Positions 15,001 to 24,000 of a stretch of DNA of 26,931 nt are shown in pieces. Numbering within the stretch: position 1 is the first letter of the stretch; every line of letters begins with the position of its first letter. The position numbers are program-made. The DNA comes from a bacterium (lineage in GTDB: Bacteria; Electryoneota; Electryoneia; Electryoneales; Electryoneaceae), in contig JAZDLX010000040.1 in assembly GCA_043801585.1 (NCBI GenBank), positions 1 to 26,931 on the forward strand. The letters are read 5' to 3'.

Positions 15001-18000
15001 CACTTCCAGCGTTTTGAGATTCTGTTCAAACTGTTCAAGGGTACGCGGTCCGGTGATCGGTGCTGTCACATCGGGCTGATGCAGCAGCCAGGCGAGAGCC
15101 ACCACTGCGGGAGAATCGCCGCGATTTTCGCAAAATGTTTCCCACGCCTCCAGCTTCGGACGGAATTCCTCAATACGGCCGGTGACGCTGCCACGGTTCC
15201 GCCGGGCGCCGTCCGTTTTTTTCAACACTCCGCCAAGCAGGCCACGATCGAGAGGACTCCAGGGAATGACGCCCATCCCATACTCACGGCAGGCAGGGAG
15301 GACCTCCAACTCCAGGGAGCGGTTGTTCAGATTGTAGATGCTCTGTTCGCTGACAAGTCCGAGAAAATGACGGTGTGAGGCGGTTTCATTCGCTCTGGCG
15401 ATATGCCATCCGGCAAAATTGCTGCTGCCCACGTAAAGGATCTTCCCCTCGCGCACCAATTGTTCCATCGCCTGCCAGATCTCTTCCCAAGGTGTGCTGC
15501 GATCCACATGGTGCATCTGGTAGAGGTCGATGTGATCGGTCTTCATCCGGCGCAGGCTGGCGTCGCACGCCTGACGAATGTTGTAGGCGGAGAGGCCGCG
15601 GTCGTTGACTTCGTCGCTCATATTGCCGTAGACCTTCGTGGCGAGGACAACTTTTTCACGGTTCTTCGGATTCGCGGCAAACCAGTGCCCAAGGATCTCC
15701 TCCGTCAATCCGGTCCGCGATCCACCGTAGATGTTGCCGTAGACGTTTGCAGTATCGATGAAGTTGATTCCGCTGTCCAGGGCGGTGTCCAGAATCCGGT
15801 GGCTATCCTTTTCTTCCGTGTGCACACCAAAGTTCATCGTCCCGAGGCAGAGACGGCTGACCTTCAATCCGGTTCGACCGAGATGTACAAAATCCATGAG
15901 AGCTCCAAGTAATCAGGATGGACAGGAACATCGTACCGGATGTTTCTTACACCCACGAAACGTTTGTGTGTTTCAAAAATAAAAGGAAACATTTAAATAT
16001 ATCATTCTCAAATCTTTCCATACAGAGATCTTTGCATTTCACTCCAGCTTTTCTGTTTTACTTGGAGCGATTTGTCAACTGGTCAAGCAGGTCCAATTGC
16101 ATCTGCTGAATCTCGGCCATCCGTTCCCATTGAACATGGAGTAGATGGTCCATCTTATCGTGTAAGGCTGCGATTTCAAGTTCTGATTTCAGGTTCACCT
16201 TGAAATCCTCGTCCGCTTCCATTCTATCACGCGCTGCAGCCCGATTCTGGCTCATCATAATGATGGGTGCCTGAATGGCTGCGAGAGCAGAAAGTGCCAG
16301 GTTGAGCAGGATGTAGGGGAAGGGATCAAATGCATCGTTTCTAAAAACAAGTGAATTCAAGGCAATCCAGATCGCCAGAGCAAGAGCGAATCCGAGAACA
16401 AACGGCCATGAACCTCCTATGGCAGCCACATGGTTGGCGAGGCGCTGTCCAAAGGTGAGTCCCTGGGAAAACTGTTCTTCCAAATGTTCGGTGATGGCTA
16501 CATGTTTCACCGCCTTTTGAGACACTTCTGTTTCCAGCTTGGTAAGTTCGCCACGCTCTTGTTTGAGTTGGTCAAGGACGTATGCAACGCGTTCGTCACC
16601 CAGGCAGGAACGGCAGATGATTCCCTCCATCTCTTGAATTTCTGGGTGCCGTGCAAGGATGAATTCAGTCAACGAAGGACGGATTATTGAAATTTTTGTG
16701 CATCTCGATGGTAGATGCTCGCGATGGCAAATACTGCAGCGCAACGTTCTTTGTTTTGTTGAAGGCATACCTGTCCTCGCAATTTTTCCTGATTTTTCTC
16801 TTGTAAACCTAATAATAGTGCCAAGGATGCAGATTGGGGATGCAGATAGATACAGCTTCTGCACTCCTGGGAGAGCGGGGACGGGGGCTCCGCGCGGTAA
16901 TCAACAACCTCTTGATGTGTCCATTTCCCTTGTTCAAGGGTTTGAAATTCCCGAAAATGTCACTTTTCAATCAGATAAATGGGAGAACGCTTAGGGAAAG
17001 GATGAGAGGAGAAGACACCTTCCAGTGCTCCAAAGGTTAGAAGAAACAGGGTTAGACGATCCTAAGTGCTGGTAATTAAGTGAGTTTATGAAATAGGTTA
17101 CACTGTAAAAAACAGGCAGCACTCCTGATTTAGAGTTTACGCGACGGGAAAGATCAGCCTTGGACCTTCGTCATGCCGTGATTCTATCTATTTTCGAACT
17201 TCACTGGGTGTTTCGTTCGATCGGATATATTCGATCAGCGCCGCATCCTGTAATTGAGTGCTGATGACATGATCGCTTGAGGGAGAAGGATGGAGGATAC
17301 AAAGAAGATTACTCGCCGCTCATTCGTGGATTATCTGCTGCTGGTTACAGGTGCGGGAGTGTTGGGGACGATTGCCTATCCCGTGCTCAAGTTCATTCTC
17401 CCTCCGGCGCAGAGCGAGCCGAACAATCTGACGATGACCGTCATGGAAGCGGGAGCATTGGCCAGGGGAGAGTTCAAGATTTTCGAATTCAATCGAAAGC
17501 CGGCGATCATTATTCGAACGGGTGCCGACGCCAAAGCGCCCGAATCCTATCACGCACTTAGCGCAGTCTGTACGCATCTCCATTGCACCGTCCAATACGA
17601 AAATGCCAGTGGCCAGATCCTTTGTGCCTGCCACAACGGACGGTTCAATCTTCAGGGGCAAGTGCTTTCCGGACCTCCTCCAAGTGCCCTGACTGCTTTT
17701 CAAGTTGAGATCCAGAACGGAAAAATTGTCGTAGCGGTTCAGGGGGCATGATGGAAGAGAAACGGTCGAAATTCGTGGCGTGGTTCTACGAACGTCTTCC
17801 CATCGATGCTCTGAAGCAGTACTCGGAACACAAAACCGTACCCCGGACGAAAGACTTTCACTGGTATTTTTTCGGCGGGATCGCCCTGTTCTTTTTCATC
17901 GTTCAGATTGTCACCGGCCTGTTCCTGTTGCTCTACTACAAACCGACGGCGGAGAGCGCCTACGAAAGCGTTCATTTCATCGAGAGCGAAGTCTACTTTG

Positions 18001-21000: not shown

Positions 21001-24000
21001 CATCGGAGATAAGGGTATCGAAAATGCCATGTTTCGACGGAAAGGATTCCTGCTTGCGTTGGGTCTCTTTGCGCTCTTCCTGGCAATCGTGATTCTGAAA
21101 ATCAGGGAACTTGACAAGCAACGGAAACTCGAGTCCCAATAATCCCATCGTCGGTCAATGGATCGGCAGGACCGCAGATTGTGCCGCTCGGCAAGCGTGG
21201 AGCATGCTGGCGATTGAATGTTTTCGCGTGGGAAAGACAAAGCTTGATCTCGTGTTCGATCCTGGAAGCTGTTGCTGTTCACATTGGATTGGAAACGGGG
21301 TACGGAGTACGCAGATACAGGTGAGACGGCCGAAGGAATGCCGTCGCGAGATATCGCAGGAACGTGGGGGCAGAAAGGAGCAAAGATGAACGAGGAAAAA
21401 TTCTGGTATGGTTATGGACGAATGATGAAGCTGCTGGAAGCGCTCGGTCTGGTCCTCCTCGTCTTCGGACCCATCGCAGGTATTGTGCTGCTTTTCATGC
21501 AAGATATGGGCGTGCGTTTTGTTGGAGTGTTTCTGATTGTAATGAGCGCTTTCCTCTCGCTGTATCACTTCAGTTTCGCCTATGTGATGCATGCGCTGCG
21601 ACAGGCGTGCAAGGGCAGAATGGAACCGGAGCCGGAGCCGGAGCAGAAATAACCGGACAATCCAGGGTTGAAGGATACATCTCTTCCAATGGGGTTGTGG
21701 AACATCGTCAGAGGCGGAACTGATCCACTCAGGTGGCGCAACCTGTCGAAAGTGCTTTTTTTAAACTTATCAAGAGTGTCATCAGGCGATGGTCCGGTCG
21801 AGTGCCATTGCCTGACAGAAACAGTATGAGTCACACAGATGCATGCAGTGAATGCACTGTCTTCTCAAAACGAAGTATCGATGCGGTGCAGCGAGTCGTG
21901 CGGTATTTGTGTGAATCGGAATTGCATGCCATTTCCCTTTCACGATGTTCCCAAGCTCCTTCCGGAATAGTTCCATGATCCGTTTTCATATGGGATCGCT
22001 TTGCCAGTTGTCATAAACACCGGACGATGTGGGATTGTTACATTGGATGGAGCTCAATGACGATGTTTCTTCAAATCATCTTTTTCTTTCATTCAGCAAC
22101 AAACGGAGCACGCAATGCGTATCGACCTCAACGTTTCTGTCTTGAAATCCTTGATTATTATGGGATTTGTCATCGAAGTTCGCAATCCGTACACCGGTGG
22201 TCATCTGTAGAGGGTGTCGCGCTGCCACGATCGAAAGGAGATGGCGATACAGTTTTTACCCGGTTTGTATGGCGGAGGGGAGGATCCACGACCGCGGCGA
22301 GAGGTGAGCGATGGAGCACACCCATCAGCATGGAAAACTGCGAGAGATGCGGTACGAGCCGGATTTGGACTTGATCCAAGAAATCGTTCAGCAGGCTCCC
22401 AAGTCAATCACCCTTCCCGAGTCTGCACAGGAACCGCAGGAAATGAGTAATTCAACGACACCGAGAGCAGGAATGGCTCTTGCATCAGGGGTGCCTGTGA
22501 GGTTTATTTATGCGGTTCCAGAAGCGGGATAGTTTTTACGTATTCCCCGGTAGCTCAATTGGCAGAGCGGGTGGCTGTTAACCACTAGGTTGGGGGTTCA
22601 AGTCCCTCCCGGGGAGCATGTTTACGGTTTATGCTATTTATAGTCCATCGATTGATCGTCTCTACATCGGACAAACCGGAGATTTTAAGAACCGCCTTCG
22701 CGCACATCGCGAGGGCGGTTCAGGTTTCACGTCGAGGGCAACGGATTGGATCGTCGTGTATACAGAACGGTATGCGACTCGACAGGAAGCGATTCGTCGA
22801 GAACGGCAATTGAAGTCGTTCCGAGGTCGTGAATTCTTAAGGAAGCGCCTTAAGTAGGCTGTTATCCGCCAGCTGGCGGATGGGGGTTCAAGTCCCTCCC
22901 GGGGAGCATAAAGCCAGGCAGAGACGCCTGGCTTTTTCGTTGGTGGGACGATGCACTCGTTATACGTCCTGTATTCCAAGACGCTGGACAAATACTATCG
23001 GTTTTGAGGTCTATTTAGAAATTCCAGACGGCCGGAAAATGACCTGCGGAACCTCAGAGTCCCTTTCCTCTCTCTTTCTGTCCCACTCAATGGTCAATAG
23101 CTGAATTGCGTCACAAATTGAAAAATGAAGGTTGTTTCCTATCCGTACTTAGGTGCATATTACGCGGTTGCCTGTCTGAATAGTATCCTACAAAAGGTCA
23201 CGATTGTTCTTTCCTTATCTTGGATTCGTACCCTGGCACAATAAAACAATATTCGTTGATCCCTTAAAAATGTCACATCTTCCGATATGTATCGATGAAA
23301 AGGAGGGGAAATCCGGACTCGGAGGGAGCAGATCAAGCGAAAAATGCTGCAGGAAAGAAAACGGCAAAACTTGAGATCAAGAGGACATCGTGATTATACT
23401 ATCAACACCACAGCCACCCATGGCGAACTTTCCAGAATGGTCTGAAGATGTACAATGGAACATCAAAAATGAATTGTGACGGGCGTACTTGAATAGGATT
23501 ATGAAATTGGTGAGCTGGCACTGGAAAATCCCAGTTTCTTATCCCATGTGCTTGTTATTTACGTGAAATCCATTGAATGTCGCTGGGCGCTGGAGGGTAT
23601 GGACCTGTCGCTTGCAGAGATTGTTAACTTCATGATTATATCTTGAATAGTGTAAGAAAACGAGGATTCATCAACAGTAATAAAAATTTCCTGACCCTCA
23701 GGAAATTTTAACTTGGAGGATCCCACTATTCCCAAGAATAACAGACATAGAGTTGCGATAACCGGGTTAGGGGTTGTGTCACCGATAGGTATCGGCCGTG
23801 ATAATTTCTGGCAAGGCCTGGTTTCCGGCAAAAACGGTGTTGGACTAATTACGCATTTCGACCATACGGATTTCACGTCTCACCTTGCTGCGGAGGTTGG
23901 TGACTTTGATCCGGAAGTATGGATCGACAAGAAAACCTCGCGTAGAATGGACCGGTTTGCTCAATTCGCTGTCGCTGCCGCTACCATGGCAATGGAAGAT

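Follow-up and report, generated by a model that had tools for sequence, protein, structure and literature searches.

What can a Rieske/cytochrome b pair do with an 18-haem cytochrome in the place of cytochrome c1 or f? The question is raised by three genes in the window, a stretch of 26,931 nucleotides of DNA from a bacterium of the Electryoneaceae. The earlier note had described these genes as adjacent or overlapping, and the open reading frames bear this out: a Rieske protein (17290–17751), a cytochrome b (17748–18845) and a multihaem protein (18860–21142) lie in that order on the forward strand, as do all features given below. The cytochrome b starts at the ATG of 17748 or of 17751, overlapping the Rieske stop, and after a gap of 14 bases the multihaem gene starts at 18860, with a GGAG site on its 5′ side. 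A longer multihaem frame starting at 18473 was rejected, as it runs into cytochrome b and the eight intact homologues are 757–767 aa long. A scan for promoters and terminators gave counts at the level of shuffled sequence (2 versus 3.9 and 6 versus 6.3).

The first two genes encode a complex of the bc type. The Rieske [2Fe-2S] protein, 153 aa long and above the Pfam Rieske cut-off (E 6e-12), has a twin-arginine anchor (TRRSF), both ligand boxes (CTHLHC and CACHNGRF) and the disulfide cysteines, and the ligand and disulfide residues are kept in 81–82 of 82 homologues. Box II (17623–17646) carries a G-F signature, which by a rule set out in a passage of PMC4122944 would indicate a low potential of about 150 mV; the G is found in 82/82 homologues, with F in 37 and Y in 45 at the second position. 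The cytochrome b is an unsplit chain of 365 aa, over the cut-offs of Pfam Cytochrome_B and Cytochrom_B_C, with seven helices, six of them seen as hydropathy peaks and the seventh probably the His-bearing helix B. Its four haem ligands (H92, H106, H193 and H208) are conserved in 85/85 homologues, and the Qo motif PEWY (18597–18608) is conserved as PEW in 85/85 and Y in 83/85. The nearest solved chains are those of cytochrome b6, but the protein is a single chain and lacks the CxGG cysteine for haem ci (it reads WYFFGG, and there is no cysteine at that column in 85/85 homologues), which sets it apart from b6f and b6c complexes. Nor does it fit the strict definition of cytochrome bc1, an eight-helix cytochrome b with a monohaem cytochrome c1 (PMC7908018), since the chain stops at residue 365 after helix seven and the partner has 18 CXXCH motifs.

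The multihaem protein, 760 aa, consists of a signal peptide, two nine-haem modules and one C-terminal membrane helix (residues 730–748; 21047–21103, by hydropathy), and the 18 motif positions, signal peptide and single helix listed in the earlier note all match the sequence. The 18 motifs are not a product of chance, because all 36 cysteines lie in CXXCH. Identity between the two halves is 33% (109 of 329, E 3e-65) and, on sequence grounds, the protein is a nine-haem module duplicated in tandem. Module 1 (18947–19960), distal and derived, has nine CXXCH and a three-helix bundle but no membrane anchor; module 2 (19961–21046), membrane-proximal and of the ancestral type, has nine CXXCH, eight conserved distal His and Met417, and its three-helix stalk continues into the anchor. 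Each module offers nine distal-ligand candidates for nine haems in the alignment, where seven His are present in 100/100 modules and His591 in 82/100. The remaining position varies among 88 single modules (Met 53, Lys 32, His 2, unread 1) and is His82 in module 1, as it is His in 6/6 first modules. Module 1 has diverged elsewhere too: it is 31% identical to single modules, as against 41% for module 2, and the tip of its bundle is polar (K/R in 6/6, versus M/V/L in 84/88 single modules). In a tree that took in six two-module proteins, modules 1 and 2 form clades that are sister to each other (support 0.89), a grouping that may reflect long-branch attraction, and module 1 sits on a long stem branch. 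A sequence search with the whole protein gave no matches to solved structures at E 0.001. Two proteins of the same genome with 17 and 19 CXXCH, earlier put forward as paralogues, are not true ones: they match at about 23% over the CXXCH repeats, with nothing aligned beyond residue 653 of 760, and the 17-haem protein is a fusion with a formate-dehydrogenase-gamma-like cytochrome b region.

By sequence, the nine-haem subunit is common in uncultured bacteria, whereas its doubling to 18 haems is rare. The two-module gene and this cytochrome b occur in the same 7 of 16 genomes of the family, the host genome (G000) included, and the gene order is kept at all six other two-module loci, in agreement with the earlier note, although these genomes are kin and not independent. 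One of the seven loci, that of G002, is decaying, with an IS1595 element within cytochrome b and frameshifts in the Rieske and multihaem genes. Overall the two-module form amounts to 10 protein clusters, whereas a single module is found at 79 of the best 80 GTDB loci, with Rieske and cytochrome b genes within 3 kb on the same strand at 69 of the 79; seven of the other ten are cut by contig ends. Fusions of cytochrome b with the multihaem protein account for 64 of 111 long homologues, one of them (L039) read through. Forms with 11 haems are common, and a homologue known here without gene context (P0152) has 19 CXXCH on the same module. Homologues with 14 haems (P0128, P0131-P0137) seem to owe their length to read-through into a downstream cytochrome and were not counted among longer subunits. 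A flanking gene with at least four CXXCH accompanies 68/79 single-module loci but none of six two-module loci.

Structure prediction suggests that the module folds like the haem chain of HAO and MtrA on a helical stalk, without the catalytic haem. The AlphaFold2 model of module 2 (pLDDT 93.9) is closest to 4n4j (Z 10.6, rmsd 5.0, 267 aligned), followed by the octahaem nitrite reductase 8rv0 (Z 9.1, rmsd 5.4, 235 aligned) and MtrA 6r2q_A (Z 7.4, rmsd 5.6, 217 aligned), values to which the bundle may contribute much, as unrelated helical bundles score Z 8–10. Foldseek matched the module to 6t5e (E 1e-3); with the full-length model it gave no match at E 0.001, HAO ranking first. The HAO-type combination of a haem chain with a C-terminal three-helix bundle is present, and hhalign gives a probability of 98.9 over six haems. 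Gene order across many phyla, the 64 cytochrome b fusions and a model of the three chains support the view that the multihaem protein is a true subunit in place of cytochrome c1/f, its anchoring beside cytochrome b being indicated by model and gene fusion only. The complex model scores 0.71 against 0.01 for the best control; 116/157 solved complexes and 2/215 mismatched pairs reach the mark, counts that are a rough guide only for a three-chain job. Runs share at least 93% of contacts and partner pLDDT is at least 83. The lowest-error contact pairs place the subunit's anchor helix, as a prediction, against helix E of cytochrome b and the anchor of the Rieske protein, the position of the c1 helix, although this packing may pass through likeness to solved bc1 complexes. 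The interface lists include partner residues 211–215 and Rieske cluster loops 93–100 and 113–116, and we infer that these loops touch the region of haem 16, the seventh of module 2 (CXXCH at 20582–20596), where the Rieske head is predicted to dock.

Genes, motifs, distribution and fusions, together with the modelled fold and assembly, point to a Q-cycle complex that oxidises a low-potential quinol and has a multihaem outlet to several periplasmic acceptors, a reading that we consider probable. The catalytic motifs of the trio are all intact and conserved in the alignments. We infer that the haems are loaded and that a low-potential quinol, probably menaquinol, would be oxidised by the Q-cycle in the three-subunit complex, one electron returning through the b haems to quinone and the other passing from the Rieske cluster into the membrane-proximal module close to the seventh haem there, from which the chain of haems would carry it to acceptors in the periplasm. 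Tandem duplication of a widespread nine-haem replacement for c1 would have given rise to the subunit, and its added N-terminal module, having lost its membrane contacts, would serve as an extension or electron reservoir, so that the doubling may lengthen or buffer the electron path across the periplasm; perhaps module 1 does the work of the distinct multihaem partners that single-module operons usually have as neighbours. Among the points against this reading, bis-His haem chains often lie below +150 mV, in which case the first transfer from the Rieske cluster would be uphill. MenA is encoded in G000 (over the TIGR00751 cut-off), but the identity of the quinone is uncertain because menD and mqnA/D were found in 0/16 family genomes.

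The sink would vary by genome, between nitrate or N2O reductase, haem-copper oxidase and porin-cytochrome conduits. There is a precedent in Campylobacter, where Qcr feeds Nap and Tor (as described in part of PMC6195509). NapA is encoded in two trio-bearing genomes, directly 3′ of the trio, in operons of the form napAGHBF, and clade II NosZ in three; both are found in 0/9 of the other family genomes. These reductases may not need the trio, given that the nap operons carry their own NapGH and that in G003 and G011 nosZ has cytochrome b-like genes no more than about 2.3 kb away. In G000 (92% complete) searches for COX1, NapA, NosZ, NirS, NirK and peroxidase found none, and the only sinks found at the level of cytochrome c are multihaem clusters. 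A 2.2-kb contig of G000 holds a gene for haem o synthase in two frames, which suggests an unassembled or decaying oxidase. A role solely in feeding a haem-copper oxidase is doubtful, COX1 being present in 8/9 trio-negative family genomes, with none found in two trio bearers.

A bolder version, which we think unlikely, has an HAO/NrfA-type scaffold that lost its catalytic haem, with the Rieske head docking where that haem stacked, doubled into a rigid 18-haem chain that reaches the outer membrane or large periplasmic reductases without a soluble shuttle; if this were true, outward electron transfer would pump extra protons. We are still more sceptical of the related proposal of the earlier note that the modules form one continuous wire spanning the periplasm, the dedicated inner-membrane feeder of a porin-cytochrome conduit on another contig (C146). 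The note's bc-type quinol oxidase with a multihaem protein for c1/f stands. The likeness of the module to MtrA (6r2q_A) suits a wire, but its continuity is uncertain because a stretch of 97 residues that includes a three-helix bundle lies between haem 9 and haem 10, and how the modules are placed and oriented towards each other is uncertain in the full-length model (pTM 0.51, built with no haems). As to the feeder, single-module operons often lie within large multihaem clusters, in RBG-1 with MtrAB (per an excerpt of PMC3903129), and such clusters are the only sinks found at this level in G000. Against it, the C146 porin-like gene, itself a lead only, is present in 15/16 family genomes (8/9 of those lacking the trio) as compared with 7/16 for the trio; its cluster has an 18-haem NapC/NirT-type membrane protein of its own (PF03264, over cut-off), G000 also encodes a CbcL-like 17-haem protein, and none of the two-module loci has a porin gene or a further multihaem gene linked to it.

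Could the multihaem protein instead be a terminal enzyme, an epsilon-Hao-like reductase of nitrite, NO or hydroxylamine whose active site is the N-terminal haem with the exchangeable Met/Lys ligand, making the trio a self-contained quinol:N-oxide reductase? In fold the module matches HAO and octahaem nitrite reductase best (4n4j, 8rv0 and 6t5e), one ligand position does vary (Met/Lys/His) among the 88 single modules, and a Caldithrix abyssi gene, perhaps of this family, that follows Rieske and cytochrome b genes beside nap has been called an octahaem epsilon-Hao (PMC5317091). We nevertheless judge this very improbable. In the profile alignment nothing in the module corresponds to the catalytic CXXCH of HAO-family octahaems, the fourth motif of seven PF13447-type octahaems (four of which were scanned, all over cut-off) facing a gap; neither this extra CXXCH of haem 4 nor a CXXCK is present, there is no extra cysteine, PF13447 has no match at E 0.001 in the 18-haem protein, every haem has a candidate sixth ligand, and the helical bundle may supply much of the fold score. 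A PF13447 search of G000 was blank, as was the response of positive controls in it.

Low-potential haems would favour electron flow toward the Rieske cluster, which counts for a complex that runs inward, from a donor outside or in the periplasm, Fe(II) for example, through the haem chain and Rieske protein to quinone, driven by the proton gradient. For the RBG-1 cluster with the nine-haem form, Castelle et al. did favour the oxidation of iron (in a passage of PMC3903129), but PEW(Y) in 85/85 homologues, reverse operation being tied to APWY (in part of PMC4122944), and the linkage to the reductase operon napAGHBF in two relatives make inward flow very unlikely.

For the outward-running Q-cycle complex that we prefer, the novelty first claimed was overstated: a nine-haem gene beside petAB (a passage of PMC3903129) and Geobacter 10- and 12-haem cytochromes (a passage of PMC2825233) are in print, and homologues with 11 haems and 19 CXXCH (P0152) exist. 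The parent nine-haem design is already published as a gene-list entry, and the doubling alone is a modest novelty. The literature searched gave no relevant match for an 18-haem bc subunit, operon drawings in figures, which may show a nine-haem partner, lying outside that search, and no biochemical study of the multihaem-outlet family. What emerges is a Rieske/cytochrome b family with 8-, 9-, 11- or 18-haem outlets spread over many uncultured phyla. More energy is conserved by Rieske/cytochrome b complexes than by simple quinol dehydrogenases (with menaquinol, H+/2e− is 2 according to part of PMC6195509). The 18-haem form is a natural experiment on the gain from extra haems, whether reach, storage or new partners, and the model offers testable points in the entry haem, the single Met/Lys/His ligand switch and the inter-module geometry.

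Several known systems share parts of this design. CbcL, MtrH and MtoC are quinol oxidases with long haem extensions, reported to hold 3 to 23 CXXCH, so 18 haems on a quinol oxidase are not without precedent; unlike the host complex, they use a HydC/FdnI-type cytochrome b and no Rieske protein (by the relevant section of PMC6295460). The HAO/octahaem nitrite reductase/NrfA superfamily and MtrA share the haem-chain pattern and C-terminal three-helix bundle, whereas the host protein has no catalytic haem motif, runs its bundle into an anchor and has nine haems per module, duplicated. It is also membrane-anchored, unlike MtrA/DmsE, a soluble decahaem beside an MtrB porin; no MtrB-type family was found among the proteins of the stretch scanned, and DmsE gave no match at E 0.001. 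The anammox complexes Kuste4569-74 and Kustd1480-85 have a membrane-anchored hexa- or octahaem cytochrome for cytochrome f, and one anammox Rieske/cytochrome b complex has an HAO-like partner, but, unlike the host complex, they combine these with a split b6 and subunit IV, haem cN and an NAD(P) oxidoreductase (in the portion of PMC12954380 on these complexes). Geobacter GSU2930-2937 encodes Rieske and cytochrome b with separate 2-, 5-, 10- and 12-haem cytochromes and a porin, and was proposed as a quinol oxidase for outward electron flow (in a passage of PMC2825233); the host cytochrome b falls below the ExtP cut-off (214 versus 290), and its 18-haem protein has no ExtM match at E 0.001. In its motifs the host complex resembles the Chlorobi/NC10/Acidobacteria clade, whose cytochrome b is long and unsplit, with PEWY and with GG but no haem ci cysteine, and whose Rieske signature is low to mid-low (in part of PMC4122944). 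The M. oxyfera DAMO_0821 stretch printed in the PMC5600118 supplement resembles our alignment A2 consensus by eye, and the passages of PMC4122944 and PMC5600118 that describe the clade mention no nine- or 18-haem subunit. Zixibacteria RBG-1 (RBG1_781/780/779, locus L063) has the same gene order and families (Rieske 40%, cytochrome b 51% and multihaem protein 40% identical); there RBG1_779 is listed under iron respiration as a ‘9 hemes c containing cytochrome’ and not as a complex subunit (in the gene list of PMC3903129). The RBG-1 form has one module of nine haems and sits inside an MtrAB/multihaem cluster; the host form has two, in a stand-alone operon.

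Three genes on the plus strand of the window encode a Rieske protein of 153 aa (17290-17751), a cytochrome b of 365 aa in one chain (17748-18845) and a multihaem protein of 760 aa with 18 CXXCH motifs (18860-21142), and it is well supported that they specify a real, intact Rieske/cytochrome b complex in which a duplicated nine-haem subunit takes the place of c1. Pfam and NCBIfam agree on the families of the first two and place the third in generic multihaem families; no NCBIfam equivalog model reached its own cut-off for the proteins of this trio. The 760-aa protein has a signal peptide and a single C-terminal hydrophobic helix, the 18 motif positions listed in an earlier note are those of its sequence, and every cysteine falls within a motif. 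Its halves, here module 1 (N-terminal) and module 2 (membrane-proximal), are 33% identical (E 3e-65). The surrounding genes of the window bear no relation to the trio, and its cytochrome b is the only bc-type copy found in the genome. Downstream lies a tRNA-Asn (22544-22617) and beyond it a fabF-like gene with a GC content of 0.485 (0.56 for the genome); this region is a possible integration point.

Seven non-motif histidines are present in 100/100 modules and an eighth in 82/100, and a further position is Met in 6/6 second modules, His in 6/6 first modules and Met, Lys or His in 87/88 single modules (the nine-haem proteins of relatives), which gives nine candidate ligands for nine haems. Met 521, kept in 99/100 modules, may be structural or a ligand. 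An AlphaFold2 model of the module (pLDDT 93.9, pTM 0.82) predicts a haem domain followed by a three-helix bundle, the last helix of which would extend 65 residues into the membrane. The fold is matched by HAO (Z 10.6, rmsd 5.0, 267 aligned) and octahaem nitrite reductase (Z 9.1), with MtrA lower (Z 7.4), a thin margin for the HAO-type matches since unrelated helical bundles reach Z 8-10. When the module profile was compared with seven HAO-type octahaems taken from fetched loci, six haems aligned (probability 98.9), and the fourth motif of the octahaems, which we take to be that of the catalytic haem (haem 4), falls opposite a gap in the module profile. The module therefore has an HAO-like build, yet is not an HAO. 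A full-length model of the 18-haem protein has both modules folded (pLDDT 88.6), with a pTM of 0.51 that leaves their predicted relative placement free.

When the Rieske protein, cytochrome b and module 2 were modelled as a three-chain complex, the score was 0.71 against 0.01 for the best control, with runs agreeing to at least 93% and a partner pLDDT of at least 83; the benchmark mark, met by 116/157 solved complexes and 2/215 mismatched pairs, is a rough guide for the three-chain case. Furthermore, 64 of 111 further long homologues are a cytochrome b fused to a 7- to 11-haem module. Model and fusions together support the proposal of the earlier note that the 18-haem protein is the subunit in the c1 place. 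Among these natural fusions (L039:6804-9245; protein clusters P0121-P0197), some have several additional membrane helices in the linker.

The helix of c1 packs on cytochrome b and the Rieske anchor, and the module's anchor is predicted to pack likewise, against residues 236-254 of cytochrome b and against the Rieske anchor, so that this portion of the complex score may reflect likeness to c1. The loops around the Rieske cluster also belong to the predicted interface, as does the CXXCH that binds the seventh haem of the module, from which we infer that the two would meet. On the fold alignment and the haem packing of these enzymes, the seventh haem is presumably the stacking partner of the catalytic haem in HAO and NrfA, which suggests, speculatively, that the Rieske head occupies the site vacated by the catalytic haem. 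Second modules and 84/88 single modules have a hydrophobic bundle tip facing the membrane, and 6/6 first modules carry K/R there, which makes module 1 the distal one. At eight conserved interface columns both modules fit the consensus of single modules poorly and to the same degree (0.19 each), which counts against a simple reading.

A twin-arginine anchor and both ligand boxes are present in the Rieske protein, as is a G-F signature after CxCH, which is read in PMC4122944 as about 150 mV and as fitting menaquinol. Among 85 aligned cytochrome b homologues, all keep the four haem histidines and PEW, Gln 213 is invariant and the haem ci cysteine occurs in none; the window protein has seven helices and is nearest, among solved chains, to cytochrome b6. 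The complex most likely functions like a menaquinol:cytochrome c reductase. MenA is present in the genome and matches to MenB and MqnC stay below cut-offs. No menD or mqnA/D was found in the 16 family genomes (G000-G015; L194:1045-2040), despite MenA and several quinol-linked enzymes in that of the window; we infer that its menaquinone is built from a scavenged precursor, the other possibility being an unrecognised quinone route.

The single-module parent design is common. A GTDB genome scan confirmed at least 574 relatives. Of the best 80 loci, all but one have a single nine-haem module of about 420 aa (79 loci); the exception, from the genus of the window genome, encodes two modules. The titles of these loci include Ignavibacteria, KSB1, Blastocatellia, Calditrichota, Zixibacteria, Aminicenantes, Gemmatimonadota, Eisenbacteria and others. 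At 69 of those 79 single-module loci, Rieske and cytochrome b genes sit on the same strand at a distance of up to 3 kb, and 7 of the remaining 10 run into contig ends. In some genomes a second, divergent trio accompanies the first, no more than 8 kb away (L013, L041, L034). In a protein search (8000 candidates scored, 1541 matches), 78 of the best 120 matches were an 11-haem form with an extra two-haem repeat, its gene lying downstream of cytochrome b in 39/46 metagenome loci that contain the complete frame (a count made by eye).

Two-module proteins account for 10 of the same best 120 matches, one being a truncated protein with 16 motifs, and for 9 of the best 120 in a separate search among long proteins; one cluster carries the source name Candidatus Electryonea clarkiae, which probably places the lineage in Electryoneota. 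The gene occurs in 7/16 family genomes; outside the family, 7/15 genomes of the phylum have a single module. A FastTree tree of 100 modules places the six first modules in one clade and the six second modules in another (support 1.0 each); the two clades are mutually sister (0.89), and their stems measure 0.97 and 0.44, respectively. This points to a duplication inside the lineage, after which module 1 would have evolved faster; identity to single modules is 31% for module 1 and 41% for module 2. The trio of one family genome (G002, L106:2933-9512) is decaying, with an IS1595 element and passenger genes inside cytochrome b and with its Rieske and multihaem genes frameshifted. In clusters P0152 (19 CXXCH) and P0173 (18 CXXCH) runs of short single-haem repeats precede an anchored nine-haem module, probably an independent route to a longer subunit. 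Since these clusters carry the same module behind other haem repeats, the description of the 18-haem subunit as the longest is not established.

No further multihaem gene was found in the fetched flanks of two-module loci (0/6; 0/4 for loci of at least 14 kb), against 68/79 single-module loci (34/39 for those of at least 14 kb; 5/7 within the phylum), and module 1 may therefore substitute for a separate multihaem partner. In two family genomes (G011, G015) napAGHBF follows immediately downstream of the trio. NapA occurs in 2/7 and clade II NosZ in 3/7 trio-bearing family genomes and in 0/9 others, all of them kin, and the nap and nos operons of trio bearers have their own quinol-oxidising genes. 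The genome of the window (92% complete) has cytochrome bd, a Psr/Phs-like system and multihaem clusters; COX1, NapA, NosZ, NirS, NirK and peroxidase were not found in it. Despite this lack of COX1, a haem o synthase gene, split over two reading frames, lies on a 2.2-kb contig (C172, L196:1065-1981). Another contig (C120, L117:7288-9942) encodes a membrane domain resembling cytochrome bd subunit I, with eight CXXCH fused to it; it lies behind an 8-helix membrane protein with no assigned family.

The earlier note also had the trio feeding a porin-cytochrome cluster on contig C146. Dedicated feeding finds no support, because that cluster needs no trio: its porin-like gene is in 15/16 family genomes, it encodes its own NapC/NirT-type 18-haem protein, and the genome adds a CbcL-like 17-haem protein. 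The NapC/NirT-type protein (L114:9279-11210) has 18 CXXCH, belongs to another family, bears an N-terminal NapC/NirT region and has close homologues in 17/31 genomes searched. The porin-like gene (L114:11383-12681) encodes a 433-aa exported protein between multihaem genes, with no Pfam or NCBIfam family; among named Atlas clusters, those nearest to it are outer-membrane barrels, a lead that it may be porin-like. In the CbcL-like protein (C151, L116:337-2925), a cytochrome b region resembling formate dehydrogenase gamma is fused to the 17 CXXCH.

Comparable partners are described in several papers: RBG1_779, a nine-haem cytochrome next to petAB within an Mtr cluster (PMC3903129; our locus L063), a Geobacter bc cluster with 2-, 5-, 10- and 12-haem cytochromes (PMC2825233), anammox complexes with hexa- and octahaem subunits (PMC12954380), pentahaems in Methanoperedens (PMC4683180), and in Caldithrix a Rieske/cytochrome b/'octahaem epsilon-Hao' run next to nap (PMC5317091). 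CbcL homologues reach 23 motifs (PMC6295460), diverse Rieske acceptors were traced in a 2013 paper by the same authors (according to PMC5600118), PMC9250108 gives background on the HAO/NrfA group, and another Electryoneota class has petBCD with dsr genes (PMC10439189). The available portions of PMC9324843 and PMC7908018 contain no mention of Rieske and no match to 'multiheme', respectively. Neither an 18-haem subunit nor biochemistry of a nine-haem subunit was found in searches of open-access article text and part of the supplements. Judged by what defines bc1, b6f and HAO, the trio is a member of none of these. What is new is the doubling; the parent is of a widespread but biochemically uncharacterised kind, its nine-haem gene already listed in PMC3903129.
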